Shown here: piece after piece, positions 24,736-43,581 of the stretch | How the letters are laid out: each line of letters opens with the position of its first letter | How positions within the stretch are numbered: the first letter of the stretch is position 1 | From: Leptospiria bacterium | GTDB taxonomy: Bacteria; Spirochaetota; Leptospiria; Turneriellales; CBDBES01 | Direction of reading: 5' to 3' | Assembly (NCBI GenBank): GCA_965262015.1 | Contig: OZ253494.1 | Span: forward strand, 229,308-293,307 | DNA length: 64,000 nucleotides | The notes under the pieces: model-generated | Databases searched by the model: none | Told to the model about the DNA's origin: nothing | What the model saw: the letters and a program-made list of their open reading frames with translations, nothing else | Translations under genes and position numbers: made by a program

Positions 24736-24909
24736 TTAGATTTTTGGATACTGAAGAATAAATATCTTGCATAATACAATCCTTACATACTGGATTTTGT
24801 GATTTGCAAAATTTTCTTCCTAAAAATATTAAATATAAAGGTAGGTCTTTCTAATATTTTTGTGGCAAGAAAGACATTAGATATTTTTTTATTGTTTCAG
24901 GGCTTGTCT
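24736..24909 (-). pseudogene. displaced 3'-terminal fragment of endonuclease III gene (nth); left direct repeat of the island
   Basis: ~174 bp aligning at roughly 90% identity to 42925-43103 (3' end of the intact nth). Encodes ..LMSFLPQKY*KDLPLYLIFLGRKFCKSQNPVCKDCIMQDI.. with TGG>TAG nonsense and no upstream nth body. Confidence 0.85.
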
Positions 24910-25101: not shown

Positions 25102-26967
25102 GTGAGTACTAAATTTTTTACTAATCAAAACAAAAACACCTTATTCAACAAACTCAAAGGTGTTTTTGACAATAATGAAAGTATCAATAACTTTGATGTT
25201 CTGGTAGATTATTTTCGCTTGTCGGGTTATTTTAAATTACGTCCATTTTTAGAGAATATTAACCATATTCGTATTCTGGTGGGTGTTGATGTTGATAGAA
25301 TCGCCCAAAAAATGCAGGCTGATGGCTTATCTCTATTTAAAGGTGATGATAAAAAAACGATTGAAGATTGGCAGGAAAAATTTATTGGTGATGTTAAAAA
25401 AGCCCGCTATGACGAGCAAACTGAGCAGGGCATCAAGCAATTTATTAAGGATGTACAAACAGGGAAAGTGCAAATCAAAGCACATCCAAGCCAGAACATT
25501 CACGCCAAAATATATATATTTCGCCCAGATGATTTTAACCCATATAAGTATGGTAGTGTGATTACTGGCTCATCAAACTTAACCGATGCAGGTATGAGAA
25601 CAAACACCAATCCTAATTATGAATTTAATGTGTTGTTAAATGACTATGAGGATATCCAATTTGCCACCAACGAGTTTGAAAAATTATGGCGGGAAGGTGT
25701 AGAGATATTACCTGAGGCAGCTGAGGTTAGCCTCAAAAAAACCTATTTAGCTGATAACATCACGCCCTATGAACTGTACTTAAAATGCCTGATTGAATAT
25801 TTTGGCACGGAGATTGAATTTGACCCTAACTCTATTAAAGATTTGCCCAGTGGCTTCATGCGTCTGTCCTATCAAATGGATGCCGTGAATGAAGGCTGGC
25901 AAATGCTAAACAAACATAATGGGTTTTTTCTTGCCGATGTGGTGGGTTTAGGTAAAACGATTATTGCCATTTTGATCGCACGCCAGTTTTATCGCTATAA
26001 CGGCTATCCTGATCATCGTTCTAAAATTTTATTGGTTATTCCGCCTGCACTCGAAAAAAACTGGGTCGATACTTTAGAACATTTCGACATTAAAGATGCC
26101 TTTGAGATTATTACCAATGGCAGTTTGCATAAAATCAAAGACCCTAAAAAGTACGACATGGTGATTGTTGATGAGGCACATAAGTTTCGCAACGATACCG
26201 CAGAAGCTTATACCCAGTTACAACTTATTTGCAAAACAAAAACTGTTGATGGCAAGGCTAAAAAAGTGATGTTGATTTCAGCCACACCACTAAATAATCA
26301 CCCTGGTGATTTATACAACCAAATTTTATTATTTCAGGACGGTAATAACTCCACCCTTGATTTTCCACTGGCTAGTTTTTTTACCAAAGCAAAAAAAGAA
26401 TATACAGACATCTCGAACCTACCCGATAAACATCAAGCTGGACAGAAAGCAGCAGAACTATATGAAGAAATTCGTGAAAAAGTGATTACCCCACTTATGG
26501 TGCGCCGAACCCGCACTGATTTATTAGAAAATGATCGCTATAAAAAAGATTTAACCAAACGGGGCATTGTATTCCCCAAAACAACCGCATCCCAACCAGT
26601 CTACGTCAAATTAGAAACACAACTGGAACAATTATACGATAGCACGATTAAAAAAATTAATAACAAAAAACAAGATGCTTCAGGATTATTACATGCTCGT
26701 TATCAAGTGTTGCATTATCTAAAGCCTGAATTCAAACAACAATACAAAAGAGCAGACCTGATTTCTAAGCAGTTAGTTGCTATTATGAAAACACTGTTAC
26801 TTAAAAGAATGGATAGCAGTTTTTATGCATTTAAGCAAACTCTAGATCGTTTTATAACATCCTCAAAAGTTATAATAAAAATGATTGAAGATAATAAAAT
26901 TATCATTGGATCAAACTTAGTTTACTACGTCATCCCCCCCCCCCCAAATGAGATAATAATTTTATGA
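25102..26967 (+). CDS. PLD-family nuclease domain fused to SNF2-family helicase N-lobe; 3'-truncated, likely non-functional
   Basis: HKD motif (NIHAKIYIF...GSSNLT), SNF2 motifs I (VVGLGKT), II (VIVDEAHKFRN), III (LISATPLNN). No helicase C-lobe (motifs IV-VI). ORF ends 20 nt after a C12 tract. GTG start. Confidence 0.8.
   Translation: MSTKFFTNQNKNTLFNKLKGVFDNNESINNFDVLVDYFRLSGYFKLRPFLENINHIRILVGVDVDRIAQKMQADGLSLFKGDDKKTIEDWQEKFIGDVKKARYDEQTEQGIKQFIKDVQTGKVQIKAHPSQNIHAKIYIFRPDDFNPYKYGSVITGSSNLTDAGMRTNTNPNYEFNVLLNDYEDIQFATNEFEKLWREGVEILPEAAEVSLKKTYLADNITPYELYLKCLIEYFGTEIEFDPNSIKDLPSGFMRLSYQMDAVNEGWQMLNKHNGFFLADVVGLGKTIIAILIARQFYRYNGYPDHRSKILLVIPPALEKNWVDTLEHFDIKDAFEIITNGSLHKIKDPKKYDMVIVDEAHKFRNDTAEAYTQLQLICKTKTVDGKAKKVMLISATPLNNHPGDLYNQILLFQDGNNSTLDFPLASFFTKAKKEYTDISNLPDKHQAGQKAAELYEEIREKVITPLMVRRTRTDLLENDRYKKDLTKRGIVFPKTTASQPVYVKLETQLEQLYDSTIKKINNKKQDASGLLHARYQVLHYLKPEFKQQYKRADLISKQLVAIMKTLLLKRMDSSFYAFKQTLDRFITSSKVIIKMIEDNKIIIGSNLVYYVIPPPPNEIIIL
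26934..26945. repeat. C12 homopolymer
   Basis: 12 consecutive C in an AT-rich genome, at the truncation point of the SNF2 ORF. Confidence 0.95.
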
Positions 26968-30737: not shown

Positions 30738-31245
30738 GGGCGGTATAAAATAAAATATGAAATGGCAGATGAATATATTGTTGGCGGGTTTAGGATCGAC
30801 ACAATTCAGTCAAATCAGGATAATAACTTTCTTATTTCTCAAGAAGTTACTGGAACCAATGATGTGAGAAGATTGCATTTTGCGGTGAAAGACAATAACA
30901 ATGAGCGGGTATTGTGGGGAGATTCAGTGAATAAGACTCTGCTTAAAAATCAAGGCGAAAACCACTATTTGCTGGCTCTGCTAAACGCTAAATTTATGGA
31001 TTGGTATTTCCGAATCACTTCATCCAACAATCATGTTCAAGGCTATGAAATAGAACAACTCCCCATCCCTAAAATATCAAAACCAGAACAACAGCCGTTT
31101 ATAGATTTAGTGGATAAAATTCTCACCACCAAACAACAGGGGCAAGACACCAGCACACTAGAAGCCCAAATAGATAAGATGGTTTATGAGCTTTATGACC
31201 TTACTGAGGATGAGATAAAAATTGTTGAGGGTGAGAAATGAGTAA
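30738..31245 (+). pseudogene. duplicated 3' ~0.5 kb of the type IIG R-M gene (TaqI-like C-terminal specificity region)
   Basis: 508-bp direct repeat of 37084-37591 (170 aa, roughly 90% identical to the C-terminus of the 1217-aa enzyme), including the overlapping ATGA junction to the next gene. Confidence 0.85.
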
Positions 31246-33586
31246 CGACGAAGCAAAAAACTTTCTTCGTAAAGGCAATGCTCATCTTGCAGAAAAGAAA
31301 TTTGACCAGGCTATTAAAGACTATAGTCAAGCCATTAAATTAAACCCTGAATATACTTCAGCTTATTACAATCGTGGCGGGGCTTACATTAGTAAAGGTG
31401 AGTATGACCGTGCTATTGAGAACTATAGTCAAGTCATTGCATTAGACCCTAAAAGTACTTCAGCTTATTACGCTCGTGGCGGGATTTACATTAATAAAGG
31501 TGAGCATGACCGTGCTATTAAAGATTATAGTCAAGTCATTGCATTGGACCCTAAAAGTACTGATGCTTATTACGCTCGTGGTGGGGCTTATAGCAGGAAA
31601 GGTGAGTATGACTGTGCTATCGAGGACTATAGTCAAGTCATTGCCTTGGACTCTAAAAATACTTCAGCTTTTTTCAATCGTGGTTTGGCTTATAGTAGTA
31701 AAGGTGAGTATGACCGTGCTATTGAGGACTATAGTCAAGTCATTGCATTAGACCCTAAAAATACTTCAGCTTATTACGCTCGTGGTTTGGCTTATAGTAG
31801 TAAAGGTGAACATGACCGTGCTATCGAGGACTATAATCAAGTCATTGCCTTGGACCCTGAATATATTTCAGCTTTTTTCAATCGTGGCGGGGCTTATAGC
31901 AGTAAAGGTGAGTATGACTGTGCTATCGAGGACTATAGTCAAGCCATTGCATTGGACCCTAAAATGGCTGATGCTTATTATGCTCGTGGCGATGTTTACA
32001 TTAGTAAAGGTGAGTATGACCGTGCTATTGAGGACTACAGTCAAGTCATTGCATTGGACCCTAAAAATACTAATGTTTTTTTCAATCGTAGCGGGGTTTA
32101 TAGCAGGGAAGGTGAACATGACCGTGCTATCGAGGACTATAATCAAGTCATTGCATTAGACCCCAAAAATACTTCAGCTTATTACGCTCGTGGCGGGGTT
32201 TACCTTAATAAAGGTGAGTATGACTGTGCTATTGAGGATTACAGTCAAGTCATTGCCTTGGACCCTAAAAGTACTAATGCTTTTTTCAATCGTGGCGGGG
32301 TTTATAGCAGGAAAGGTGAGTATGACCGTGCTATTAAAGACTATAGTCAAGTCATTGCCTTGGACCCTAAAAATACTGATGCTTTTTTCAATCGTGGCAA
32401 GGTTTATAGTAGTAAAGGTGAACATGACCGTGCTATTGAGGGCTACAGTCAAGTCATTGCCTTGGACCCTAAAAATACTGATGCTTTTTTCAATCGTGGC
32501 AAGGTTTACAGTAGTAAAGGTGAACATGACCGTGCTATTGAAGACTATAATCAAGTCATTGCATTAGACCCTAAAAATACTTCAGATTATTACGCTCGTG
32601 GTGGGGCTTATAGCAGGAAAGGTGAGTATGACCGTGCTATCGAGGATTACAGTCAAGTCATTGCATTAGACTCTAAAAATACTTCAGCTTATTACGCTCG
32701 TGGCGGGGTTTACCTTAATAAAGGTGAGTATGACTGTGCTATCGAGGACTATAGTCAAGTCATTGCATTAGACTCTAAAAATACTGATGCTTATTACGCT
32801 CGTGGTTTGGCTTATAGTAGTAAAGGTGAACATGGCCACGCTATTGAGGATTACAATCAAGTTATTGCATTGGACCCTAAAAATACTGATGCTTTTTTCA
32901 ATCGTGGCGGGGTTTATAGTAATAAAGGTGAACATAACCGTGCTATTGAAGACTATAGTCAAGTCATTAAACTAAATCCTGAATATATTTCAGCTTATTA
33001 CAATCGTGGTTTGGCTTATCGAATTATAGGCAAAGAACAAGAGGCTATAAAAGATTTTAAAGAGGTAAATCAATTAGACCCGACTGTTATTCCAAAGGAG
33101 CAAGTTAAGAAAACAGATGAGAAAGTTACAGAAGTTGAAGAAACAGTTAAGAAAACAGATGAGAAGGTTACAGAAGTTCAAAATTTTCAGAGCATTTTCA
33201 AAGAGTTAAGAGACGAGTACAAAAAAGGAGAGGGTAGGTGGTTTTGGGCAAGTGTTTTGATTATCATTGGTGTTTTCATTGGTTTATGGTACTCAATATT
33301 ATGTCTTAAAGCAGACTATAAAAATTTGTATCCTCTTTATGTTTTCTCATCAATTATTACATTTATTATTATCCGCCAATACACCAACGCTAAACAGCTA
33401 CGAATTGAAGCCAGCAACCGGTTAGCGATGGCAAAGATGTTTGAAAAAATACAACAAACTAAAGACAATCCACATTATCAAGATTTCATACGCAAAATAA
33501 TTGACAGCATTGCCTATTCAATGCATAAAAATCAACAAGAATCGATAACACCAATTGATGAGATACTAAAACACTTTAAAAAATAA
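31238..33586 (+). CDS. TPR-repeat protein (18 repeats) with C-terminal 2TM domain
   Basis: 18 consecutive 34-aa TPR units (consensus AYYARGGAYSSKGEYDRAIEDYSQVIALDPKNTS), a duplicated VKKTDEKVTEV segment, then two TM helices (WFWASVLIIIGVFIGLWYSIL; LYVFSSIITFIIIRQY) and a ~90-aa helical tail. Confidence 0.85.
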   Translation: MSNDEAKNFLRKGNAHLAEKKFDQAIKDYSQAIKLNPEYTSAYYNRGGAYISKGEYDRAIENYSQVIALDPKSTSAYYARGGIYINKGEHDRAIKDYSQVIALDPKSTDAYYARGGAYSRKGEYDCAIEDYSQVIALDSKNTSAFFNRGLAYSSKGEYDRAIEDYSQVIALDPKNTSAYYARGLAYSSKGEHDRAIEDYNQVIALDPEYISAFFNRGGAYSSKGEYDCAIEDYSQAIALDPKMADAYYARGDVYISKGEYDRAIEDYSQVIALDPKNTNVFFNRSGVYSREGEHDRAIEDYNQVIALDPKNTSAYYARGGVYLNKGEYDCAIEDYSQVIALDPKSTNAFFNRGGVYSRKGEYDRAIKDYSQVIALDPKNTDAFFNRGKVYSSKGEHDRAIEGYSQVIALDPKNTDAFFNRGKVYSSKGEHDRAIEDYNQVIALDPKNTSDYYARGGAYSRKGEYDRAIEDYSQVIALDSKNTSAYYARGGVYLNKGEYDCAIEDYSQVIALDSKNTDAYYARGLAYSSKGEHGHAIEDYNQVIALDPKNTDAFFNRGGVYSNKGEHNRAIEDYSQVIKLNPEYISAYYNRGLAYRIIGKEQEAIKDFKEVNQLDPTVIPKEQVKKTDEKVTEVEETVKKTDEKVTEVQNFQSIFKELRDEYKKGEGRWFWASVLIIIGVFIGLWYSILCLKADYKNLYPLYVFSSIITFIIIRQYTNAKQLRIEASNRLAMAKMFEKIQQTKDNPHYQDFIRKIIDSIAYSMHKNQQESITPIDEILKHFKK
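31250..33085 (+). repeat. 102-bp coding tandem array (TPR units) with high nucleotide identity between units
   Basis: Recurring strings such as gaccgtgctattgaggactatagtcaagtcattgcattagaccctaaaaatact at 102-bp periodicity. This produces stop-free alternative frames on both strands. Confidence 0.85.
33104..33180 (+). repeat. 42-bp direct tandem duplication inside the TPR gene
   Basis: gttaagaaaacagatgagaa(a/g)gttacagaagtt occurs twice, 42 bp apart. Confidence 0.8.
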
Positions 33587-33634
33587 ACCAATGATCTGGA
33601 AGTAAATGTTGATCTGATTAAAATATTACAAAAT

Positions 33635-33661
33635 TTATAAACGTTTTGCTAACGTTTATAA
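33635..33661 (+). terminator. AT-rich hairpin downstream of the TPR gene (weak terminator candidate)
   Basis: 11-bp stem ttataaacgtt/aacgtttataa with 5-nt loop, 49 nt after the stop; no clean U-tract. Confidence 0.35.
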
Positions 33662-33675
33662 GAAAAGTGTGTTTC

Positions 33676-33782
33676 GTATAAATAAAACAGCGGTCAAGCA
33701 TATTGAAACCCAAATCGACCAGATGGTTTATAAACTTTATGACCTAACCGATGATGAGATAAAAGTTATTGAGGAGGGATAA
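33676..33782 (+). pseudogene. orphan R-M gene 3' tail remnant (copy B)
   Basis: Encodes ..AVKHIETQIDQMVYKLYDLTDDEIKVIEEG*. Near-identical in its 5' part to the remnant at 41028-41141. Confidence 0.75.
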
Positions 33783-33933
33783 TAGCAGAACTTGTAATTG
33801 TGATATCAAAAAATATGACGTTAATAGCCACATAGAAGACAATCCCAACAAGCAACAAAAATCTATAAATAAAAATCTAAAAATTATTATTTCACAATCT
33901 TATGTATAAATCATTAATAAATAGAACTAAATA

Positions 33934-36900
33934 ATGAGCCTATTACTATTAAAACAAACCTACAATCGAGATAATTACCTTGATTTTCTAGCGGACAAAT
34001 TTAAGTTTTCCAAGAATCTTGCCCCTATCAGCATAGAAAATAATGATGTTAAATTTTTTCAACGACTAGGCACAATCACCACCCATGATGATAAAGAACT
34101 TCCCGTCTTTGAAATTTATATCAAACCCAACACCCAATTAAGCAGAAATCGTGTGCAATTACGTAATTTAGTTGCTAAGCAAATCCAAACAGAAGACGGT
34201 GCCTTGGCGGTTTATATTGATGCGGATAACCAGCAATGGCGGTTTAGTTTTATTGCCATTGAATATAGCTTTTCCGCTGAAGGTATTAAAAAAGAGCAAA
34301 CAGCCAGCAAACGCTTTACTTACCTATTTGGCGAGAACACCAAAACCAGAACCGCAGAAGAAAGATTTAAAAAACTTAACAACCAATCCACCCTGCAAGA
34401 CCTAAAAGAAGATTTTGCCGTTGAAGCATTGAATAAAGAATTTTACGATAAACTTTATAGATGGTATGAAAAGGCACACAATCAAGTTACTTTCCCAAAT
34501 GATGAAAAAATGGAAAATCACATCCAAACCAGCCTGATTCGCCTTCTCACTCGCCTGCTATTCATATGGTTTATTAAAGAGAAAAAACTCATTAATCCTG
34601 ATTTATTTAACCAAGAGAAATTACAAAATCTGATTGATTACAACCAACCCAGCAGTTTTTATAAAGCGATATTACAAAACCTATTTTTTGCTACGCTCAA
34701 TGTTGAAATTAATAAACGTGATTTTAGAGATGAAGAAGATACTCAAGGTGCAAATAAAGACTACGGCAATCAATACCGTTATCGTTATCACGCTTTAGTA
34801 AAAAATAAGGGAAAATGGAAATCGTCCTTTACTGAAACACCTTTTTTAAATGGTGGTTTATTTGAAAGTTTGGATAAAAAATTAAATGAATTTGTATTAG
34901 ATGAAAATAATAATACTAAAAAAAATAGCTACGGTGATCAAATAATCAACCAAGAACATAAGAAACTTATTGATGATTGGAATGCAAATACTCGCCCAGA
35001 AAAAGCCATGATACGGATGGAGGGATTTTCCGAACACAAAAAGAACCCATTAAAAATTAGCAATCAGCTTTTTTTCAACAACGATGAAAATGATTTAGGC
35101 TTGATTGATTTATTTAATCAATACCAATTTACCGTCGAAGAAAGCACCTCTCTAGACATAGAAGTTGCCCTTGACCCCGAACTATTGGGCAAGGTGTTTG
35201 AAAACCTGCTTGCCAGTTCTAATCCAGAAACAGGACAACAGGCTCGCAAAGCCACTGGCAGTTTTTACACCCCACGAGAAATTGTTAATTACATGGTGGA
35301 TGAAAGCCTGAAAGCGTATTTTTATCAGCACACAGATCTAACAGACAAGCAGATCAATACCCTGTTTGATGAATCTGAATTCACCAAGCAAAAAAACACT
35401 TTGAGTAAGCAACAAACGATAACCCTGATCCACGCCATAGATAAGCTAAAAATTCTTGACCCAGCGGTGGGCAGTGGTGCTTATCCGATGGGGGTTTTAC
35501 AACGGCTGGTGCTAATTTTAGAAAAAGTGGATACAGAAAACACCCACTTCAAACAACAGCAAATCGACAAGGCACAACAAATCCCCGATGAAGCCAGTCG
35601 TACTAGTGCCATAGCGGCGATAGAGCAGGTTTTTTCACAACAAAACCAGCATAACGCTTATGGCAAGAAATTAATGCTAATCGAAAACTGCATTTATGGC
35701 GTGGACATCCAACCCATCGCCATTCAAATATGCAAACTACGCTTTTTTATCAGCTTAACCGTTGAGCAAACCCCCAACCAGGACAAAGCCGATAATTACA
35801 CCATCAAAGCCCTGCCTAATTTAGAAACCAAATTTATTGTTGCCAATAGCCTGTTGCCTTTGGGCGAGATGCCCACATATATGTTTAAGGGGAAAATAGA
35901 AGAACTACAACAACAATTAGCTAAAATACGGCATAAGCATTTTAGTGCCAAGACCTTAAAAACTAAACACGAATACCGCAACAAAGATAAGCAATTAAGA
36001 CAAGAGTTATCTCAATTACTGCGGGAAGATTATCAACAGAATTGCGTCTGGGCAGAGGCAATGAAAATTGTCGATACAAAGACAAATAAATTGATAAAAA
36101 ATAAAAAACATTACCAGAATAAAATAGATGGAGAAAAACAAAGAACGTTTTCATCGGATAATACAAACCGTGCTAGTGATAAAGAGCAACAGAATTGGCA
36201 AGATAAAATTATAGACTTAGAAGAAAATATTGCGTCAGAAAAAAAGATAATGCTACTCATATCCCACCATGATGAATCTCTAAAAAAGAAAAATATATGG
36301 GGAAAAGCTGAAACCACGGCAAAAGAAAACGCTGAAAAATTTTATGCCAGAGTGAGAAAAATCGCCAACTGGGATTTATATAATCAAAATGCTGTAGCTG
36401 ATTGGTTTCATCTTGAATGGCAATTTGGTGTTAAAAACGGCTTCGATATTGTTATTGGTAATCCACCTTATGCCCAAGTAAAAAGAAATGTCTATGCCAA
36501 AACTAACTTTCCTTATTCACAAGGAATAGACAAGGGCAAACAAAATCTTTACAAATTATTTGTAGAATTGTCCCATAATCTTTGCAAAAATAACGGCGTT
36601 GCCACAATGATTGTGCAAAGTAGTCTAATGGGCGACTTATCCTCTGCTGGAACACGGCAATTATTATTAGATAAAACACAACTCAAGCACATTATCGAGT
36701 TTCCAAAAATGGCAACATCAAGAGAAAGACAGGTATTTAACTCAGTTACACAAGGCACCTGTATTTATCAATTTATTAAACAATCCGTTGATAATTGCAC
36801 TATTGATATATCCATCAACAATGACAGTGAAAGTATTAAAAAACTAATTTTTTCACCCATTGAAAAGGCAACAATACATACACTTTATCCAAAATTTTTA

Positions 36901-37587
36901 TATTTCCCAAAAATTGCAACAGGCAACACCACTATTTTGCAAAAAATAGCTAATAACCCTTCAATCAAACCGCTTTCAGCCTTTATTCAATCAATGCAAC
37001 AGGGCGATATAAATTTAACCGCCCATTCATCTCAATTTTCCAATGAATTAACCTCTGTTAAACTGATGCGTGGTAGACATGTTGGGCAGTATACAATCAA
37101 ATATGAAATGGTAGATGAATATATTGTTGCAGGGTTTAAGACTGATAAAATCCAGCAAAATCAGGATAATAACTTTCTTATTTCTCAGCAAGTTACTGGG
37201 ACCAATGATGCCAGGAGATTGCATTTTGCGGTGAAAGATAATAACAATGAGCGGCTACTGTGGGGAAATTCAGTGAATAAAACTCTACTTAAAAACCAAA
37301 GTGAAAACCACTATTTTATGGCTCTGCTAAACGCTAAATTTATGGATTGGTATTTTCGAATCACTTCATCCAATAATCATGTTCAAGGCTATGAAATAGA
37401 ACAACTCCCCATCCCTAAAATATCAAAACCAGAACAACAGCCATTTATAGATTTAGTGGATAAAATTCTCACCGCCAAACAACATGGGCAAGACACCAGC
37501 ACACTAGAAACCGAAATAGATAAGATGGTTTACAAACTTTATGACCTCACTGAGGAGGAGATAAAAATTATTGAGGGTGAGAAATGA
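33934..37587 (+). CDS. type IIG restriction enzyme / gamma-class N6-adenine DNA methyltransferase fusion (Eco57I/PglX-like) with TaqI-like C-terminal specificity domain
   Basis: 1217 aa. Motifs GSFYTPREIVNYMV, SAM-binding ILDPAVGSGAY, catalytic IVIGNPPYAQV, C-terminal ..QVTGTND..GYEIEQLPIP..IDKMVYKLYDLTEEEIKIIEGEK. The N-terminal ~400 aa plausibly forms the nuclease/translocation part, but no catalytic motif was verified. Confidence 0.8.
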   Translation: MSLLLLKQTYNRDNYLDFLADKFKFSKNLAPISIENNDVKFFQRLGTITTHDDKELPVFEIYIKPNTQLSRNRVQLRNLVAKQIQTEDGALAVYIDADNQQWRFSFIAIEYSFSAEGIKKEQTASKRFTYLFGENTKTRTAEERFKKLNNQSTLQDLKEDFAVEALNKEFYDKLYRWYEKAHNQVTFPNDEKMENHIQTSLIRLLTRLLFIWFIKEKKLINPDLFNQEKLQNLIDYNQPSSFYKAILQNLFFATLNVEINKRDFRDEEDTQGANKDYGNQYRYRYHALVKNKGKWKSSFTETPFLNGGLFESLDKKLNEFVLDENNNTKKNSYGDQIINQEHKKLIDDWNANTRPEKAMIRMEGFSEHKKNPLKISNQLFFNNDENDLGLIDLFNQYQFTVEESTSLDIEVALDPELLGKVFENLLASSNPETGQQARKATGSFYTPREIVNYMVDESLKAYFYQHTDLTDKQINTLFDESEFTKQKNTLSKQQTITLIHAIDKLKILDPAVGSGAYPMGVLQRLVLILEKVDTENTHFKQQQIDKAQQIPDEASRTSAIAAIEQVFSQQNQHNAYGKKLMLIENCIYGVDIQPIAIQICKLRFFISLTVEQTPNQDKADNYTIKALPNLETKFIVANSLLPLGEMPTYMFKGKIEELQQQLAKIRHKHFSAKTLKTKHEYRNKDKQLRQELSQLLREDYQQNCVWAEAMKIVDTKTNKLIKNKKHYQNKIDGEKQRTFSSDNTNRASDKEQQNWQDKIIDLEENIASEKKIMLLISHHDESLKKKNIWGKAETTAKENAEKFYARVRKIANWDLYNQNAVADWFHLEWQFGVKNGFDIVIGNPPYAQVKRNVYAKTNFPYSQGIDKGKQNLYKLFVELSHNLCKNNGVATMIVQSSLMGDLSSAGTRQLLLDKTQLKHIIEFPKMATSRERQVFNSVTQGTCIYQFIKQSVDNCTIDISINNDSESIKKLIFSPIEKATIHTLYPKFLYFPKIATGNTTILQKIANNPSIKPLSAFIQSMQQGDINLTAHSSQFSNELTSVKLMRGRHVGQYTIKYEMVDEYIVAGFKTDKIQQNQDNNFLISQQVTGTNDARRLHFAVKDNNNERLLWGNSVNKTLLKNQSENHYFMALLNAKFMDWYFRITSSNNHVQGYEIEQLPIPKISKPEQQPFIDLVDKILTAKQHGQDTSTLETEIDKMVYKLYDLTEEEIKIIEGEK

Positions 37588-38036
37588 GTAAGCCCATTTA
37601 CACCATTATTGGTGGGGTCAATGGTTTGGGTAAAACGACTTTTGCACTCGATTATCTGGTGAACAATGTTGCTTGCAAGTATTTTATCAACGCCGACTTA
37701 ATTGCTGTTGGCTTGTCGCCCCTAGATTCAACTCAGCAATCAATAACCGCCAGTCGCCTGTTTTTACAACAAATTAAACAAGCCGTTATGCGTAAGAAAA
37801 ATTTTGCCTTTGAAACTACTTTATCGGGTAGAAGTTACTTGAAGCTCATTCGTCAATTACAGGCAGATGATTGGTTTGTTGAGCTGATTTATCTCTACTT
37901 GCCGAGCGTGCAATTATCTATTGAGCGAGTTGCAGAAAGAGTTAAGCATGGCGGGCATGATATTGCACTAACATCTATGGATAGAACTAGTTGCAACTAC
38001 GATTTGAGCCAACCGATGAGGCGTGCAAACTCGTAA
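37584..38036 (+). CDS. zeta-toxin-like P-loop kinase/ATPase (COG4185-type), C-terminus replaced by repeat sequence
   Basis: Walker A IIGGVNGLGKTTF. The start overlaps the R-M stop (ATGA). The last 21 aa (TSMDRTSCNYDLSQPMRRANS) come from the 93-bp repeat, so the native C-terminus is missing. Confidence 0.65.
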   Translation: MSKPIYTIIGGVNGLGKTTFALDYLVNNVACKYFINADLIAVGLSPLDSTQQSITASRLFLQQIKQAVMRKKNFAFETTLSGRSYLKLIRQLQADDWFVELIYLYLPSVQLSIERVAERVKHGGHDIALTSMDRTSCNYDLSQPMRRANS

Positions 38037-38061
38037 GATGAAATAAAAATCATTGAGGAGG
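37969..38061 (+). repeat. 93-bp perfect direct repeat, copy 1 (divergent R-M tail scar)
   Basis: 100% identical to 42261-42353; contains ..YDLSQPMRRANS* followed by DEIKIIEE. Confidence 0.9.
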
Positions 38062-38080
38062 CCGTAATGATAAAAAAATA

Positions 38081-38186
38081 AAACAACTTTTAGAAATAAA
38101 AAAACTGGAAACTATCTACCAGCAAAAAATAACTTATTTGGATGAGCTAAAAAAGAGCATACTACAAAAGCATTTAACGGAGAATT
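38081..38186 (+). pseudogene. C-terminal remnant of a type I R-M specificity subunit (hsdS)
   Basis: KQLLEIKKLETIYQQKITYLDELKKSILQKHL resembles the conserved C-terminal helix of HsdS (..LDELKKSLLQKAF..). No TRD is present. Confidence 0.5.
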
Positions 38187-40385
38187 ATGATAAAAAAAAT
38201 AAACATTAGTAACGTAGCGAGTTATAAAACTATAACTTCACTAGAAACTGATAAAAAGGTTAATCTAGTCTATGGGCTAAATGGCACGGGGAAAAGCATA
38301 TTTTCTAATTTTTTATATGATAGAAATGATAATAAATACTCAGGTTGTTCTATTGAAGGCATAACAGATGAAGAAAATATATCGGTTTATAATAAAAAAT
38401 TTATCGATGAGTTTTTCTATGTGCCTGATAATTTAGAAGGAATTTTTACGCTATCAAAGGAAAATAAAGAAGCAGAGCAGAAAATATTAGAAACGAAAAA
38501 AAAGAGAGATAAGTTAAATGAAAATAAAGAAGCTAAAGATAGTGAAATTAAGACAATAAACACAAGCATCGCTGAAAAGGAATCAACTTCTGAAAATAAA
38601 ACATGGGAAATTAAAATTAATTATTCTGGCGGGGATAGAGTGTTAGATTTTTGTTTAGATGGTTTGAAAAAAGAACAAAAGAAACTTTTTAACTATATTT
38701 TATCTATTCAGAAACCAACCACAGAACCCAGTAAAACAATAAAAGAACTTGAAAAAGATGTTCAATCTTTGCTCGGTAAGGATGCACAAAAATATTCCCC
38801 ATTGTCAATTATTCAATTTTTTCAACATACAATAGAAACAGACGCTATTTTTCAAAAGGAAATTATTGGTAATGAGAATAGCACTTTTGCAGATTTAATC
38901 AAAAAATTGAAAAATTCTGATTGGGTAAAAGAAGGGTTGGAATATTTGCCAAGTAAAATTGATAAAAATGGCAATCCTTGCCCTTTTTGCCAAAGCAATA
39001 CAATTACAAACACCGTTGCTTCGGATATAAAAAGCTACTTTGATGAATCTTATAAAAAAGATCAAGATACTCTAAGACAATTATTATCAGACTATGAGAC
39101 TGCTATAAAATCAATTATATCTATTGAAATATACAAAACAAATCCGTTTGTTCTAGAGCAGGTAACTGAGATTGAAAACAAATACAATCAAGTTATTGAA
39201 GTTTTGAAATCTAACAAGAGTAAAATAGAGAAAAAAATTGAAAACCCTAGTCAAAGATTTTCCATTGAGAACTCAACAAAAGAGATTGAAACTTTTAATC
39301 AATTTATTAGAGGTATCAATAAAACAATTGATGAATACAATAAAAAATTAGACAATAAACAAAACGAATTAGAGAATATAAAAAAAATATTTTGGGATAT
39401 TATGCGTTGGGATTATGACCAAATAATTTCATCGTATATCAAAGAGGAGCGTTCTTTTAAGGAAAAAAAATATTTGTTAGAAGAAGATGTAAGAATACTT
39501 AACGATGAGATTAAAAATCAAAATAATATCATTACACAAGAACAAAAAAAAACAACAAATATAGAAGATGCCATTGATAAGATAAATGGACGTTTAATAG
39601 ATTTAGGCATTGATAGTTTTATTATAAAAAAAGATGTAGATAAGAAGAATTTTTACAAAATAGTAAGAGGCAATTCAGCAGATAAATTAGAAACAAAAAT
39701 ATTCGAGACTCTAAGCGAGGGAGAAAAAATGATTATCACTTTTCTATACTTTGTTGAGTTATGCAAAGACAAAAAAATAAACTCTACGGAAACAGGGCGA
39801 AAAGAGATAATAGTAATTGATGACCCCATTTCTAGTTTATCGCATATCTACATATTTAATATTGGGCAGTTGATAAAAACAGAATTCCTAAATTCAAAGA
39901 ATTATAAACAAGTATTTTTACTAACACATAATTTATATTTTTTCTATGAGTTAACTGATATAAATCATGAACGTAGAGAGGCTAATCAAAAATTATTTCG
40001 ATTAGTTAAAAACTCTGATGGTAGTCATTTTGATGAAATGAGATATGAGGAAATTCAAAACGATTATCACGCTTATTGGCAGATTATAAAAAATGACGGG
40101 CAACCGCCTGCACTAATTGCAAACTGTATGAGAAATATTATTGAATACTTTTTTAATTTTATTGAAAAAGTGGATTTGAACGATGTTTTTCAAAAATCGG
40201 AATTGAAAGACAATAATAAATGTCAGGCTCTTTACAGATATATAAACAGAGAATCTCATTCTTCTGGTCAGAATATTTTTGATTCTAAAGAGTTCGATTA
40301 CAATTACTTCAAAGAGGCTTTTAGTTTGGTGTTTAAGAAAAATGGCTATGAAAAGCATTATAATAAAATGATAAAGATAAAATAG
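38187..40385 (+). CDS. RloC-like anticodon nuclease (AAA_13-type ATPase with coiled-coil zinc hook and PrrC-like C-terminal nuclease motif)
   Basis: Walker A VYGLNGTGKS, long coiled coil containing CPFCQ (CxxC hook), Walker B IIVIDDPISSLS, C-terminal R-x3-E...H pattern (CMRNIIEYFF...YINRESHS). Confidence 0.75.
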   Translation: MIKKINISNVASYKTITSLETDKKVNLVYGLNGTGKSIFSNFLYDRNDNKYSGCSIEGITDEENISVYNKKFIDEFFYVPDNLEGIFTLSKENKEAEQKILETKKKRDKLNENKEAKDSEIKTINTSIAEKESTSENKTWEIKINYSGGDRVLDFCLDGLKKEQKKLFNYILSIQKPTTEPSKTIKELEKDVQSLLGKDAQKYSPLSIIQFFQHTIETDAIFQKEIIGNENSTFADLIKKLKNSDWVKEGLEYLPSKIDKNGNPCPFCQSNTITNTVASDIKSYFDESYKKDQDTLRQLLSDYETAIKSIISIEIYKTNPFVLEQVTEIENKYNQVIEVLKSNKSKIEKKIENPSQRFSIENSTKEIETFNQFIRGINKTIDEYNKKLDNKQNELENIKKIFWDIMRWDYDQIISSYIKEERSFKEKKYLLEEDVRILNDEIKNQNNIITQEQKKTTNIEDAIDKINGRLIDLGIDSFIIKKDVDKKNFYKIVRGNSADKLETKIFETLSEGEKMIITFLYFVELCKDKKINSTETGRKEIIVIDDPISSLSHIYIFNIGQLIKTEFLNSKNYKQVFLLTHNLYFFYELTDINHERREANQKLFRLVKNSDGSHFDEMRYEEIQNDYHAYWQIIKNDGQPPALIANCMRNIIEYFFNFIEKVDLNDVFQKSELKDNNKCQALYRYINRESHSSGQNIFDSKEFDYNYFKEAFSLVFKKNGYEKHYNKMIKIK

Positions 40386-40482
40386 CCAAAGGAAAAACTC
40401 ATTGACATCTTGATAAAGAAAGATACAAGCCAAAAAATCAAAGTTTACTTATATCTTTGAGCAAAAAAACATAAAAAATAGC

Positions 40483-41027
40483 ATGATGAATGAAACCCAA
40501 ACCAGAGCAGAATTGATTGAGCCCAAGCTCAAAGCTAGCGGTTGGGGTGTTGTTGCTGGTGCCAAGATTTTGCGTGAGCATAAGATTACCGATGGTAGGA
40601 TACAGGTGGGCGGTAGTAGAGGCAAGGTATTAAAAGCCGATTATGTGCTAGTGTATAAGGGTATCAAACTAACAGTAGTGGAGGCGAAGAGGGCGAGCTT
40701 GGCAGTGAGCGAGGGTGTGCAGCAAGCAAAAAACTATGCCAAAAGATTAAATGCAGTGATTGCCTACGCTACCAACGGTAGTGAGATTTATAGTATCTGT
40801 ATGCAAATAGGCACAGAGGCTCTAGTGGAGGATTTTCTAAGCCCAGATAAAATGTGGAGCAAGGCATATCCTAAGGATATATCAAGTAAACAAGCCGAGT
40901 ATTGGCAAGACAAATTTACATGAGTACCTTTTGAGAATAAAAGCGACACCTTGCAACTGTGATACTATCAGGAGATTGCTATTAGAAATACTCTACAAGC
41001 TATAGTGCAAAGTAAAAAGCGTATTTT
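40483..41027 (+). pseudogene. 5' fragment of type I restriction enzyme R subunit (hsdR) with two in-frame TGA stops
   Basis: HSDR_N-type N-terminus (NETQTRAELIEPKLKASGWGV..KADYVLVY..VVEAKR). The frame continues past TGA 40921 and TGA 40960 into L*YYQEIAIRNTLQAIVQSKKRIL (helicase motif Q region) and then ends in tail remnant E. Confidence 0.8.
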
Positions 41028-41141
41028 GTATAAATAAATAAAACAGCGGTCAAGCATATTGAAATCCAAATAGATAAGATGGTTTATCAGCTTTACCGCC
41101 TCACGGCTGATGAAATAAAAATCATTGAGGGTGTAAAATAA
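41028..41141 (+). pseudogene. orphan R-M gene 3' tail remnant (copy E)
   Basis: ..AVKHIEIQIDKMVYQLYRLTADEIKIIEGVK*; shares gtataaataaa..aaacagcggtcaagcatattgaaa with copy B. Confidence 0.75.
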
Positions 41142-41236
41142 TTTTTGTTAGATTTGGACTTGACAGATTATAATCAAGCATAACCGTACAATCTTTAGCA
41201 CTAGGATTAGTTATCTACAATGGAGGAGAAACTTAA

Positions 41237-41707
41237 ATGAAATTGAGTGAATGGCTGGGAAAGCGGGGTATGACATCTCTCAAAATTAAAACCTCATTCT
41301 TGGAAATGGAGTTCAAGCCATCTGAACCAGATAAAAAAGCCGCTTGGGACATGTACATAGAGTTGCTTACTCGAATTACAACACAAGTGCTTGGTGATTA
41401 CGATGGAGACGAACAAACAGCATTAACCAGTATTTATTCTATATTCCCTACCACGCAATCTATAATTAAGGATAATGGCAGGGAGTGTATAGAGTTTACA
41501 AAACTTGCAATAGTTGTGTTGAACCAAATAGTGAGGCCATTTACAGCAAAATGGCACAAGATCTCCATTGAAACAGGTTTTAATGACTCTGATGTATGCA
41601 AGCAATTTAGGAATGAACTCCAAGACCTTCAAAAAGTATTAAATACCTACACAGTTATGTTAGCTGATATGGCTGGTGTTGAAGACCTGACCAATCTCGA
41701 GGAATAA
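41237..41707 (+). CDS. hypothetical all-helical protein (156 aa), partner of the TIR-like gene
   Basis: ORF ends 3 nt before the TIR gene start. No family recognised. Contains an R-x6-H string (RPFTAKWH) that could be HEPN-like; this is speculative. Confidence 0.55.
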   Translation: MKLSEWLGKRGMTSLKIKTSFLEMEFKPSEPDKKAAWDMYIELLTRITTQVLGDYDGDEQTALTSIYSIFPTTQSIIKDNGRECIEFTKLAIVVLNQIVRPFTAKWHKISIETGFNDSDVCKQFRNELQDLQKVLNTYTVMLADMAGVEDLTNLEE

Positions 41708-41710
41708 AAT

Positions 41711-42328
41711 ATGAAAAAAATCAGACACAAAGTATTCATAAGTTATCATCATGCTAATGACCAAAAATACAAGGAATATCTTTTACGGCTTAATGAACAT
41801 GGCGATATATTTATAGATGCTTCGGTAGATACTGGTGACGTAAACGAAGAATTATCTGATCAAGGTATACGTCGACTTATACGAGATGATTACTTGCGAG
41901 ACTCAACAGTAACCATTGTTCTTGTTGGAACTGAAACAAAGAATAGAAAACATGTTGATTGGGAAATATACTCAAGCATGTTTGATGGGACTGTAAACAA
42001 AAAATCCGGTGTGCTTGTTATTCAATTACCTACTACGAACTGCACAGAATGTATAGCTGCGCATGGAGATCATGAGAAAGCCATCATCTACCCCAATAGT
42101 AATTGGGTCAATATTGATACCAAAGCTGAATATGAGTCAAAGTATCCATATATGCCTGATAGAATAATTGATAATTTATTACAATCTGGAGCCAAGATTT
42201 CCATAACTAATTGGGATAAAGTCATTGATAATGTTAAAAATTTATGTTTTTTGATTGATGTAACATCTATGGATAGAACTAGTTGCAACTACGATTTGAG
42301 CCAACCGATGAGGCGTGCAAACTCGTAA
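41711..42328 (+). CDS. TIR-like domain protein, ThsB/DUF1863 type (C-terminal 21 aa derived from the 93-bp repeat)
   Basis: KVFISYHHANDQKY..DASVDTGD..SDQGIRRLIRDDYLRDSTVTIVLVGTETKNRKHVDWEIYSS parallels ThsB-type TIR (FxSxHxxD, xVxxVLIGxxTxxRxWVxxEI with the putative catalytic Glu). Confidence 0.75.
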   Translation: MKKIRHKVFISYHHANDQKYKEYLLRLNEHGDIFIDASVDTGDVNEELSDQGIRRLIRDDYLRDSTVTIVLVGTETKNRKHVDWEIYSSMFDGTVNKKSGVLVIQLPTTNCTECIAAHGDHEKAIIYPNSNWVNIDTKAEYESKYPYMPDRIIDNLLQSGAKISITNWDKVIDNVKNLCFLIDVTSMDRTSCNYDLSQPMRRANS

Positions 42329-42353
42329 GATGAAATAAAAATCATTGAGGAGG
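42261..42353 (+). repeat. 93-bp perfect direct repeat, copy 2
   Basis: Identical to 37969-38061; supplies the stop of the TIR ORF and ends 4 nt before the next ATG. Confidence 0.9.
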
Positions 42354-42357
42354 AATA

Positions 42358-42705
42358 ATGACAGAACTTGTAATTCTAGGTGTAGCAGAAATAGCTATCT
42401 TTGCACCGGTAATATTCTTGATTTATAAATACTTTGACAAGAAAAATAGAGAACAACAGCAAAGGGAATTTAAGTATTTTTATCAACTGGTAAAGGACTT
42501 AGTTGAACCAGAGAAGGGTCAAGACATGTATCTTGATCGACAAACAGCGATTATATTTGAATTAAGAAATTTCAAAAGATACCATGAATATTCACTCAGG
42601 ATGTTGAAAGGATTTCTCAAGGATGAACAACGATGGAAAAAAGATAGATATATCGAAGAAATTAAACTTACAATAAGTTTTATTGAAAAAAAAATCAGCG
42701 GATAA
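42358..42705 (+). CDS. small single-pass membrane protein (hypothetical, 115 aa)
   Basis: N-terminal TM helix LVILGVAEIAIFAPVIFLIY, then a charged helical domain. A degraded copy of its first ~20 nt also follows tail copy B at 33783. Confidence 0.5.
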   Translation: MTELVILGVAEIAIFAPVIFLIYKYFDKKNREQQQREFKYFYQLVKDLVEPEKGQDMYLDRQTAIIFELRNFKRYHEYSLRMLKGFLKDEQRWKKDRYIEEIKLTISFIEKKISG

Positions 42706-42727
42706 AAAAAATGATTAATCATCTAAT

Positions 42728-42924
42728 CTCACGAAATAAAAATCATTGAGAATATAAAATGAAACAAGCCGTTTGCACCATTATTGCTAAAATGGTGGAG
42801 GTAGAACAATTTTAGCACATGCTTATTAGGCGAAGAATATTGATTGCAAATGTTTTGTTAATGTCAATTTGATCGCTACTAGCTTGTTGCCTCTTAATCC
42901 AAATCAGCAAAAATAACTGCCAGT
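42728..42924 (+). pseudogene. R-M tail remnant (copy G) plus degraded 5' fragment of a second zeta-like P-loop gene
   Basis: ctcacgaaataaaaatcattgag..ATGA, then MKQAVCTII.. and FVNVNLIATSLLPLNPNQQ.. in shifted frames, paralleling MSKPIYTII..FINADLIAVGLSPLDSTQQ of the 37584 gene. Abuts the nth stop codon. Confidence 0.6.
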
Positions 42925-43581
42925 TTAGACTATATTTTGGGATGCTGAAGGACAAATATCTTGCATGATACAATCCTTACATACTGGATTTTGTGATTTA
43001 CAAAATTTTCTTCCTAAAAATATTAAGTATAAAGGTAGGTCTTTCCAATATTTTTTTGGCAAGAAAGACATGAGATCTTTTTCAATTGTTTCGGGGCTTG
43101 TCTTAGAGGTAAGGCCTAGACGTTGTGTTATACGACGAACATGTGTATCCACTACAATTCCTGGTGTTTTATTAAAAGCAACTGCCATTATAACATTGGC
43201 TGTTTTTCTACCAATTCCTGGTAGTTGAGTTAAAATACTAAAATCATCTGGTATTTTACCATTATATTCTTTAACTAGTATATTAGCTAATTTTTTTAAA
43301 TTGCGTGCTTTATTTTTGTAAAAACCAGTGGAATAGACAATTTCTTCCAGTCTAGAAAGGGTAATTTTGTCTAAAGTAAACATATCAGGACATTCAGTAA
43401 AAAGTAGTTTTGTCACTATATTTACACGGATATCTGTACATTGTGCAGATAAGATCACTGCCATAGATAATTGTTCTACACTATTGTGCTCTAGAGGGGG
43501 CTCTGCTTTACCAAAATAATTGTCTAGTCTGTTAAAGACGATGCCTAAGTAGGGTTCTTTACGATAATTCCTAGCAGTCAT
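42925..43581 (-). CDS. nth: endonuclease III (DNA glycosylase/AP lyase)
   Basis: HhH-GPD motif LPGIGRKTANVIM, VDTHV, C-terminal 4Fe-4S cluster CKSQNPVCKDCIMQDIC. Confidence 0.9.
   Translation of the reverse strand: MTARNYRKEPYLGIVFNRLDNYFGKAEPPLEHNSVEQLSMAVILSAQCTDIRVNIVTKLLFTECPDMFTLDKITLSRLEEIVYSTGFYKNKARNLKKLANILVKEYNGKIPDDFSILTQLPGIGRKTANVIMAVAFNKTPGIVVDTHVRRITQRLGLTSKTSPETIEKDLMSFLPKKYWKDLPLYLIFLGRKFCKSQNPVCKDCIMQDICPSASQNIV

Follow-up and report, generated by a model that had tools for sequence, protein, structure and literature searches.

How bacterial defence islands are assembled and renewed is an open question, the known routes being mobile elements, integrons, and recombination in large conserved flanking genes. 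A stretch of 64,000 nucleotides (nt) from a Leptospiria bacterium (GenBank assembly GCA_965262015.1, contig OZ253494.1, positions 229,308 to 293,307; the whole of it is called the window here, and position 1 is its first letter) raises this question in a concrete form, as a short piece of one restriction-modification (R-M) gene recurs seven times within its defence island, mostly directly in front of another gene. This piece, the tail, is recognisable as the 3'-terminal ~75-160 nt of one type IIG-like family that joins an Eco57I methylase to a TaqI_C specificity domain, and the genes that follow its copies are referred to as cargo. Why should the end of a restriction gene be repeated between defence genes? 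The answer that we favour, with some reserve, is that the conserved tail provides portable homology for the recombinational insertion and exchange of cassettes; the anatomy of the arrays described below suggests that defence genes can accumulate behind a single anchor gene in bacteria with no need of a dedicated integrase.

The repeats themselves are beyond doubt. A 22-nt core of the tail, GATGARATAAAARTYATTGAGG, matches the 64 kb seven times at up to three mismatches, always on the plus strand and nowhere else (at 31209, 33753, 37555, 38037, 41109, 42329, and 42730, belonging to the copies c1 to c7 from left to right), where dinucleotide-preserving shuffles of the window predict 0.01 matches. 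In self-blastn, positions 30738-31245 align with 37084-37591 at 91.3% identity over 508 nt; c1, c2, c3, and c5 are pairwise 79-86% identical over 70-116 nt with E values from 1e-12 to 4e-24; and c4 and c6 (37969-38061 and 42261-42353) are 100% identical over 93 nt, a repeat search returning the same pair over a wider span as family D10 (97% over 100 nt). Two further alignments join a tail end to the start of the gene behind it: 37558-37754 matches 42733-42924 at 70%, a 197-nt repeat that holds c7 and the start of a zeta-like gene, and 33753-33799 matches 42329-42375 at 87%, covering the start of a 115-amino-acid (aa) gene that, on direct reading of the sequence, is dead at 33783, where ATG has become ATA. 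The tail model scores c1, c2, and c5 at E values of 1.9e-20, 1.1e-21, and 9e-19. The copies differ in completeness, c4 and c6 being clear tail in their last ~25 nt alone (their first ~68 nt resemble the tail weakly, ..NYDLS.., and contain a stop) and c7 being a stub of ~30 nt. An earlier note on this DNA, which had reported a type IIG tail of ~75-110 bp at these seven places, is thus borne out, and its reading of the encoded peptide and of overlapping stop and start codons holds as well, ATGA or TAATG being found at the junctions as it described. The possibility that the copies share nothing beyond low-complexity runs, which the note had itself named as fatal to its idea, fails against the self-blastn scores and the shuffles.

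The gene that owns the tail lies intact at 33934..37587 on the plus strand and ends in c3 (37502-37587), its ATGA overlapping the next gene. Its 1217-aa product, a type IIG-like methylase and specificity protein, matches Pfam Eco57I (2.5e-26), N6_Mtase (5e-10), and TaqI_C (residues 1043-1160) as well as the PADLOC model REase_MTase_IIG (1.3e-54). GNPPY at residues 842-846, invariant in 40 homologues, places it among the gamma-class N6-adenine methyltransferases with NPPY, and a target recognition domain of TaqI_C type is present in the same polypeptide as the methylase. Pfam and further family scans gave no nuclease family match in the N-terminal ~400 residues. In relatives, a gene for an HKD(PLD)-SNF2 helicase of ~1100 aa precedes the type IIG gene, sometimes with a VapBC or a methylase/GHKL-ATPase module between them, and this partner could supply the nuclease. 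The family numbers at least 8000 homologues. The recognition region is hypervariable, most homologues aligning over ~58% of the 1217-aa query, while the motif (E)xxI(D/N)xxVYxLYxL(T/S)xxE(I/V)xI(I/V)E ends 108 of the 120 best homologues, so that the tail represents a C-terminus (..EIDxMVYxLYDLTxxEIKIIE..) conserved throughout the Eco57I/TaqI_C type IIG family. Because this motif directly follows the hypervariable specificity domain, the tail is a short island of nucleotide homology across alleles, paralogues, and genomes. At least four type IIG paralogues are found in the source genome and several per genome are common, which means that exchange partners exist. The ribosome-binding site of the cargo also lies within the tail (..ATTGAGG.., with its GAGG motif), and the start codon of the cargo overlaps the tail's stop codon, an arrangement suggesting that translation of the cargo is coupled to the reading frame of the tail; such coupling may help to keep the 3' end of the tail preserved.

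The copies had at first been taken for scars of the R-M gene's own tail. They are indeed 3' ends of the type IIG family, but they do not derive from the one intact gene: c2 is 93-94% identical to the type IIG gene tails of other genomes, yet only 86% identical to c3 (blastn). The copy c5 is 82-84% identical to orphan tails in three of the related loci described below (L002, L005, and L006). The tails of the window evidently stem from several type IIG alleles and appear to travel with cassettes. The identical pair c4 and c6 was also considered as a separate mobile mini-element; the pair is unique to the window and its identity ends exactly at the tail end, and conversion between two orphan tails seems the better fit.

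The arrangement recurs well outside this genome. A scan of one genome per species returned ten loci with relatives at 61-71% identity, all in metagenome-assembled genomes (MAGs), and individual look-ups of homologues added nine more (comparison loci carry numbers from L001 to L090). Most of the MAGs behind the first ten loci are named as sponge symbionts, among them Candidatus Spongiihabitans, Poriferihabitaceae, Pseudohongiella, Rubritalea, a Leptospiria bacterium, Nitrospina, and Ekhidna. With a 78-nt DNA model, 53 tails were called in 17 related loci, 36 of them orphans, compared with seven tails and six orphans in the window. The counts are one tail in L003, L008, L013, L014, and L018, two in L001 and L009, three in L002 and L004, four in L005, L010, L012, and L017, five in L007 and L011, and six in L006 and L019. 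All 36 orphans share the strand of the type IIG gene and lie at its 3' end or beyond, with none in the 10 kb upstream, and the next open reading frame (ORF) mostly starts ~7 nt past the end of the model, overlapping the tail stop. Arrays of the form tail, cargo, tail are present in many genomes, nearly all cargo being co-oriented with the anchor gene, and they stop at housekeeping genes, often with a terminal orphan tail that has no cargo. Stray type IIG fragments in all close loci, searched by tblastn with two full-length proteins, are 3' ends only, beginning at or beyond residue 1051 of 1217 and mostly at or beyond residue 1157; the same searches found no N-terminal or middle fragments in these loci.

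What lies between the tails is diverse, with defence or toxin-antitoxin-like genes in the majority. The commonest first cargo is a TPR gene, homologues of which stand directly behind a tail in L002, L005, L006, L009, L013, and L018; others are a zeta-like kinase with a small ORF of 63-73 aa, a C5 methylase with a GHKL ATPase and DUF4145, Fic, DUF488, a reverse transcriptase, AAA_15/AAA_21 ATPases of OLD type, Mrr-nSTAND3, DUF5131, DUF4917, a DprA-like SLOG protein, a 115-aa membrane-type protein, and TIR. A fixed gene 3' of the tail, which had likewise been named beforehand as incompatible with a docking role, is not what the relatives have, this position being hypervariable among them. The claim that every payload sits directly behind a tail does not hold for rloC, which follows an hsdS 3' remnant, nor for the gene of a 156-aa protein, which begins 95 nt past c5.

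Several elements accompany the orphan tails. A hairpin, TTATAAACGTTTTGMTAACGTTTATAA, with a perfect 11-bp stem (TTATAAACGTT-N5-AACGTTTATAA) lies 41-45 nt upstream of many of them (window 33635-33661; L002 14498; L005 15065 and 17595; L006 14738; L007 17568/17609 and 22272/22313; L010 16655/16696), in tandem pairs in L007 and L010 and behind differing cargo (TPR, Fic); the module of hairpin and orphan stands behind cargo in L002, L005, L006, L007, L010, and L017. The right arm of the hairpin can be aligned with the codons for '..QPFI..' in the 3' end of type IIG genes, and the structure could be a terminator, a protein-binding site, or a relic. The small ORF of 63-73 aa (..AQQIAEALNRSVAAALEKKRRLGQYAVVWDGEKVVRILP..), without a family match, ends at the 5' edge of many orphan tails (L001 ~18273-18470, L002, L006, L011 17085-17306, L012 15018-15218, and L019 15300-15520, 18707-18898, and 19206-19397); it usually follows a zeta-like gene, in an antitoxin-like position, and in L019 three copies stand by themselves or after cargo of other kinds. 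Exactly where the tail ends, L003 (13400-), L004 (15330-), and L006 (14880- and 20425-) carry an inserted REP-like palindromic element (..GTCATTCCTGCGAAGGCAGGAATCC.., read ..NNATPDLVIPAKAGIQ), which swaps the last codons and lengthens the type IIG protein (proteins P0023, P0024, P0026, and P0042).

Alleles of the anchor protein at 61-71% identity occur across MAGs of Gammaproteobacteria, Verrucomicrobiota (Rubritalea), Bacteroidota (Ekhidna), Nitrospina, and Leptospiria, several of which hold 2-4 paralogues, and MAGs of different taxa (L001-L010, L017-L019) share whole cassettes, as well as the N-terminal 2.2 kb of the anchor gene, at 95-97% identity, which points to cross-phylum transfer within sponge microbiomes.

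More distant relatives show the same polarity. A metagenome scan with a single protein returned nothing, while an alignment-based scan gave 80 loci at 31-61% identity from many environments; 24 of these, with a full-length gene and at least 1 kb downstream, were searched in six-frame translation with a protein model of the tail. Orphan tails were found in six of the 24, seven in all, each downstream and on the same strand, none upstream or antisense, and every orphan is similar to the tail variant of the locus in which it lies. The inserts comprise a pair of PIN and a small ORF, a Y1 (IS200-like) transposase, Hypoth_Ymh, an AAA_15 ATPase, and Schlafen/AlbA_2. Among viral contigs there was no exact match to the tail pattern and only four distant relatives, and thus no evidence for a phage vehicle.

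Where occupied and empty versions of a site can be compared, the breakpoints fall in the tail. L001 is empty (gene, tail, C5 methylase) and L002 occupied (gene, tail, TPR, hairpin, orphan tail, C5 methylase): the first 2.3 kb of the gene agree at 95.3%, the recognition regions of the two loci are unrelated, and identity resumes at 95.7% 24 nt before the YxLY codons of the tail, continuing through 5 kb of shared cargo. In L002, the tail at this right breakpoint is the orphan behind the extra TPR cassette. L011 and L012, from different samples, encode one and the same type IIG protein and agree at 99.75% over 11.9 kb; what sets them apart is an extra cassette (a 188-aa gene with an insertion sequence) flanked by a duplicated small-ORF end and tail, and downstream their identity steps down from 99.75% to 95.8% and 86.7%. 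In L090, one of the distant loci, 78 nt that coincide with the tail stand as direct repeats, 97.4% identical, on either side of an insert of 0.66 kb with PIN and a small ORF, resembling a toxin-antitoxin pair; this is a clean recent case. All three instances (L001/L002, L011/L012, and L090) thus combine direct repeats of more than 30 bp around the insert, single at the empty site, with the absence of a mobility gene.

The two halves of the tails also keep company with different neighbours. The 3' half tracks the cargo that follows, reading EIKIIEETK* before TPR, EIGIIE before the C5 methylase, and ..GATTCGACATGA before zeta. The 5' half of an orphan tracks the cargo that precedes it, the hairpin type standing after TPR (window, L002, L005, and L006) and the small-ORF type after zeta. 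What follows the same module of TPR, hairpin, and orphan tail varies: in L002 it is a C5 methylase, in L005 a 278-aa gene, in L006 a REP-like element, and in the window the dead start of a 115-aa-type gene. Within a genome, tails are homogenised regardless of their flanks, as in the window, where c4 and c6 are 100% identical, and in L007, where the tails at 21154 and 22412 have one and the same 3' half and are followed by different cargo. Pairwise limits of similarity around 49 tails peak at -30..-20 and +40..+65; a fixed crossover point was considered and dropped, as these limits coincide with the conserved peptide and do not separate homologous from site-specific recombination.

Searches for other signals gave little. 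Tails folded as DNA on both strands do not form an attC-like structure (z 0.1 to -2.0), only the separate hairpin with its 11-bp stem being structured. Among the scanned ORFs of the window and the loci, which are part of all their ORFs, there was no integrase, resolvase, or recombinase, the only mobility enzymes being DDE transposases from insertion sequences. The tail copies all repeat in direct orientation, unlike the inverted repeats of a shufflon, and the recombinase of a shufflon is likewise missing from the scanned ORFs. A mirror-image duplication of a 5' 'head' around cassettes between the helicase and the type IIG gene was likewise rejected, self-blast of the first 300 nt giving no match, and a scan for promoter and terminator consensus sequences over 30.4-43 kb returned counts equal to those in shuffles, such a scan being uninformative in AT-rich DNA.

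If the tail is portable homology, the mobile unit would consist of the 3' part of one tail, a cargo, and the 5' part of the next tail. Recombination between a cassette's tail and the resident type IIG tail would then insert the cassette and leave one tail on each side, by one of two routes: a circle released from another array by recombination between two of its tails could integrate through a single crossover, or a linear fragment with a tail at each end could enter by a double crossover. The left crossover would sometimes fall farther up, in the conserved methylase region, and the specificity domain would be swapped too. Repeated rounds would produce a polar array ending in an orphan tail beside core genes, and recombination between tails would also delete, swap, and homogenise cassettes. 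The enzyme system would presumably be general homologous recombination of RecA type, acting on a circular or tail-flanked intermediate. The earlier note's suggestion of a recombination anchor through which cassettes are swapped and stacked accordingly draws support from the breakpoints, the arrays, and the linkage of tail halves to cargo as far as the outcome is concerned, the mechanism being deduced from this anatomy.

A number of points count against such docking by homology. No recombination event was observed directly and no free circular or tail-flanked intermediate was seen. Repeats of 75-110 nt at 80-90% identity are a poor substrate for RecA-type recombination, and rates might be very low except with closely related donors. 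Not all cargo is docked at a tail, the exceptions being rloC behind the hsdS remnant, the 156-aa gene 95 nt past c5, and the cargo of L090, 91 nt past the stop. The 5' limits of orphans range from 30 to 508 nt, which implies that some junctions were illegitimate or were trimmed later. A few sponge metagenome projects account for much of the set of close loci, and some of the blocks shared there may go back to one recently inherited island instead of many separate events; moreover, a recombinase might act in trans from elsewhere in the genome.

Other explanations have to be set against this one. That no special process is at work, the tails being the last bits of independently acquired type IIG pseudogenes and their neighbours coincidental, is so improbable as to be already contradicted. 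The island is clearly decayed (a truncated helicase and zeta gene, hsdS and hsdR remnants, a dead start), and the source genome has at least four paralogues; against this, the strays are all 3' ends, with none from the other ~95% of the gene, and random pseudogene decay is thereby ruled out. Nor would coincidence account for the strict polarity of strand and side in every close locus with orphans and in six distant loci, for start codons of cargo that abut tails, or for near-identical recent repeats and presence/absence variants that end in the tail. Displacement by one-sided homology, as for orphan rhs/cdiA, is a more serious candidate, if an unlikely one for the arrays as a whole. An incoming segment of methylase region, new specificity domain, tail, and cargo would cross over in the gene body and join illegitimately upstream of the resident tail, pushing the old tail and its cargo downstream, where the old tail would be kept as the ribosome-binding site of the old cargo. 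This would explain why the specificity region is replaced together with the first cassette in the pairs L001/L002, L002/L006, and L002/L005, identity of 95-97% stopping ~2.2 kb into the gene, and it agrees with the variable 5' limits of orphans, including long remnants of 508 nt in the window and 411 nt in L010, with cargo that is 3'-truncated directly against the next tail (zeta in the window and in L002), and with the GAGG motif at the tail end before the cargo start. Random joins, however, predict remnants of all lengths in the variable region of ~1.2 kb, whereas the 5' limits of most orphans lie 25-60 codons from the end, close to where the conserved 3' segment starts, so that homology-limited duplication fits better than random illegitimate joining. 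The same orphan 5' part before different cargo across genomes would require later crossovers inside the orphan tail, and the repeat of L090 is coextensive with the tail at both ends. Displacement probably accounts for some junctions, those of the truncated zeta genes and the remnants of 411-508 nt, and is compatible with docking by homology.

A dedicated enzyme acting at the tail would offer a different answer, and one that we rate as improbable: either a recombinase encoded elsewhere would insert cassettes site-specifically in the manner of integron attC x attI, or cutting by the restriction or helicase proteins would give a long target duplication. The layout does resemble an integron, with one anchor, co-oriented and apparently promoterless cassettes, and a repeat of ~75-130 nt between them, and a perfect hairpin with an 11-bp stem precedes many orphans at 41-45 nt in six genomes; R-M units have been described as inserting with long target duplication in the absence of mobility genes (PMC2853133), and a 179-nt duplication of the nth 3' end borders the island as a whole. 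Many orphans, though, have no hairpin, the scanned loci hold no integrase or resolvase, and neither strand of the tail folds significantly (z 0.1 to -2.0). What is repeated is simply part of the coding sequence of the anchor gene, its limits of similarity follow protein conservation rather than a fixed crossover point, and the variable 5' limits of orphans argue against one fixed crossover site.

A wider version of docking by homology can be put forward only tentatively, and we would sooner doubt it than accept it. The tail of the type IIG/HKD-SNF2 family might be a general platform for gene capture without an integrase, an 'integron by homology', in which a pool of small defence and toxin-antitoxin cassettes labelled by tails circulates between unrelated bacteria, docks behind any member of the family, and is expressed by translational coupling. 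Such a pool would span the Gammaproteobacteria, Verrucomicrobiota, Bacteroidota, Nitrospinota, and Leptospirae MAGs found in sponges, and the hairpin and the small ORF of 63-73 aa would be functional parts of the cassette ends.

The window itself reads as a stack of at least two arrays, old and largely decayed, much of it dead. The island extends over ~18 kb, from 24.7 to 43.1 kb, between the two copies of a 179-nt direct repeat of the nth 3' end (90.5% identity in self-blastn). On the left lies an orphan nth 3' end (24731..24909, minus strand), a direct repeat of 42925-43103 that matches nth residues 155-218 at 78% in tblastn; on the right, the repeat forms the 3' 179 nt of an intact nth, encoding endonuclease III (42925..43581, minus strand; Pfam HhH-GPD). 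No integrase is visible at this border, where the right copy completes an intact gene and the left is an orphan, and the nth borders repeat the signature of the tail one level up, with a duplicated gene 3' end around an insert. Just outside the island, two tandem flagellin genes (21097-21960 and 22127-22960, minus strand) encode proteins of 287 and 277 aa and share ~65% DNA identity.

The left part of the island begins with a truncated HKD(PLD)-SNF2 helicase (25102..26967, plus strand; Pfam PLDc_2 and SNF2-rel_dom; PADLOC 'HKD+Snf2' C3a139), which has 621 aa against ~1100 in relatives and shows 75-80% nucleotide identity to the first 1.8 kb of the genes for 1087-1113 aa upstream of type IIG in L001 and L004-L009. 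It lies 7 kb from the intact type IIG gene, and the system of the window may retain methylase function only, if any. Between the truncated helicase and a TrlF-family/Ppl-like ATPase stands a 185-aa ORF of no known family (27054-27611), bracketed by a 64-nt direct repeat (26997-27060 and 27651-27714, 89%); the ORF and its repeats may be another small insertion with a flanking duplication. The ATPase is followed by a 69-aa ORF (30539-30748; ..KPLPDRYRFLLFEDKKEVELVWNGKTQEV..) that abuts the first type IIG fragment and has no Pfam or NCBIfam match, and which we take to resemble the N-terminus of a type III/N6_N4 methyltransferase.

That fragment, a 0.5-kb 3' end of a second type IIG allele (30738..31241, plus strand), is 91.3% identical to 37084-37591, gives a TaqI_C match, and ends in c1 (31156-31241), whose ATGA overlaps the start of a TPR gene (31238..33586, plus strand; 782 aa; Pfam TPR). 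Between 31303 and 33132, this gene consists of seventeen tandem 102-nt (34-codon) repeats at 64-87% identity, and its homologues in other loci have 360-1059 aa, so that the number of repeats is highly variable. The hairpin (33635-33661) and the orphan tail c2 (33663-33782) come next, together 33635..33782 on the plus strand, the tail proper being preceded by a degenerate type IIG 3' end with an in-frame stop ('..FRINKTAVKHIETQID..'). Behind c2 are the dead start of the 115-aa-type gene (33783..33800, plus strand; ATA for ATG, within the 87% match to 42329-42375) and a remnant of ~130 nt from the 3' end of an HKD-SNF2 helicase gene (33805..33933, plus strand), matched by blastn to the ends of the helicase genes in L004 (9882-), L007 (9887-), and L009 (9374-9471), which came in with the intact type IIG gene that follows it.

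Beyond c3, a zeta-toxin-like/AAA_33 kinase gene (37584..37961, plus strand; Pfam Zeta_toxin) is truncated after ~128 of 192 codons and matches, at 87% nucleotide identity, the opening 395 nt of the complete 192-aa genes in L001, L002, L005, and L006. It runs into c4 (37962..38061, plus strand), a 100-nt repeat identical to c6 and with the core in its last 25 nt, and then into a type I hsdS 3' remnant (38062..38186, plus strand; 38093-38209 is 81.5% identical to the end of L004 548-1840, Methylase_S) that overlaps the start of the gene for an RloC/PrrC-like AAA_13 ATPase (38187..40385, plus strand; Pfam AAA_13 2e-113; PADLOC PDC-S06 7e-248). A type I hsdR N-terminal fragment (40483..41014, plus strand; Pfam HSDR_N), frameshifted and ending before the helicase motifs, precedes the orphan tail c5 (41015..41141, plus strand; '..INKTAVKHIEIQIDKMVYQLYRLTADEIKIIEGVK*'), which belongs to the same degenerate lineage as c2 (81% over 116 nt). 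The peptide 'KKRIL' before c5 was considered as the motif-I region of hsdR; the same bases occur in c2 and in the orphans of other genomes, which puts the junction at ~41015.

The last cargo comprises a pair at 41237..42253 (plus strand), a 156-aa protein without a family match in Pfam and other family scans and a ThsB-like TIR (Pfam ThsB_TIR 4e-22; PADLOC ThsB, PDC-M50B), the TIR ORF reading on into c6 (42254..42353, plus strand). Its TAATG overlaps the gene for the 115-aa membrane-type protein (42358..42705, plus strand), which has no Pfam or NCBIfam match and homologues of which stand behind a tail in L007 (22465-22809) and in L011. The stub c7 (42730..42762, plus strand) has the core with three mismatches, and the block that holds it is colinear with L007 22436-22974. 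Through its ATGA the stub overlaps a second zeta-like gene (42759..42924, plus strand), a 5' remnant cut at the island border that matches zeta residues 13-52 in tblastn and is 72% identical to the zeta starts of L005 and L002.

The signature recurs across several phyla and in distant relatives, the window being an eroded example of it. If the tail is docking homology, it would give a simple rule for finding new defence genes, namely whatever lies between two tails, and a mechanism by which dense communities such as sponge microbiomes could share defence genes across phyla; diversification of restriction specificity and gain of accessory defence would be linked in the same recombination events. 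In the literature searched, which included a 2025 review of restriction-modification, there was no description of tail-flanked cassettes behind type IIG genes, coverage being incomplete and the result an absence of evidence only.

Several known systems share part of this anatomy. Two come closest. One is the orphan arrays of rhs, cdiA, and mafB, in which a full-length main gene is followed by polar, co-oriented modules, each preceded by a fragment of the main gene; in arrays of orphan rhs-CT/cdiA type, displaced modules carry a conserved fragment of the main gene, recombination in this common homology makes module exchange possible, and modules are exchanged between strains (PMC3967940). In rhs and cdiA, however, the homology precedes a variable C-terminal domain and recombination re-fuses a toxin domain, whereas here it is the extreme 3' end and swaps downstream leave the main protein unchanged; the homology is 75-160 nt long here against 522 nt in the Salmonella rhs-CT orphan case (PMC3967940), and the cargo consists of free-standing genes of unrelated families in place of modules of toxin domain and immunity gene. 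The other, insertion of restriction-modification units with long target duplication (Furuta et al. 2010, PMC2853133), leaves direct repeats of more than 30 bp and involves no transposase or integrase, and shares with the present loci flanking repeats that are single-copy at the empty site. There, an R-M system is inserted at arbitrary loci, while here the target is always the 3' end of an R-M gene, hit recurrently so that arrays form, and the inserts are TPR, PIN/toxin-antitoxin, zeta, Fic, ATPases, and others instead of R-M units, one cassette type including a C5 methylase. Allelic replacement of recognition domains in type IIG genes, from the same source (PMC2853133), belongs to this comparison as well.

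Integron arrays resemble the loci in having a platform gene, co-oriented and apparently promoterless cassettes, a repeated element of ~60-140 nt, and cassettes shared between genomes, and differ in that here there is no IntI among the scanned ORFs and no attI, and the repeat is coding, has no attC-like fold, and varies in its 5' limits. In defence islands and hotspots, and with accessory defence genes inside type I R-M loci such as prrC in ecoprrI (PMC12707154), varied defence genes turn over at one set place beside or within an R-M locus, as the window's rloC behind an hsdS remnant may recall, but known hotspots are bounded by kilobase-scale core genes or att sites, where here a gene piece of 75-160 nt recurs at the junctions. 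The domain movement of hsdS and type IIG genes and the shufflons have in common with the present case that short conserved segments flanking variable recognition domains serve as recombination sites, and the specificity region is swapped here too; shufflons use inverted repeats and a dedicated recombinase to rearrange one gene, whereas here the repeats are direct and the genes downstream are exchanged. Relative to the two closest of these systems, the differences lie in the use of an anchor gene's extreme 3' end as the homology, in the free-standing modules of many families, and in the reuse of the same short target.

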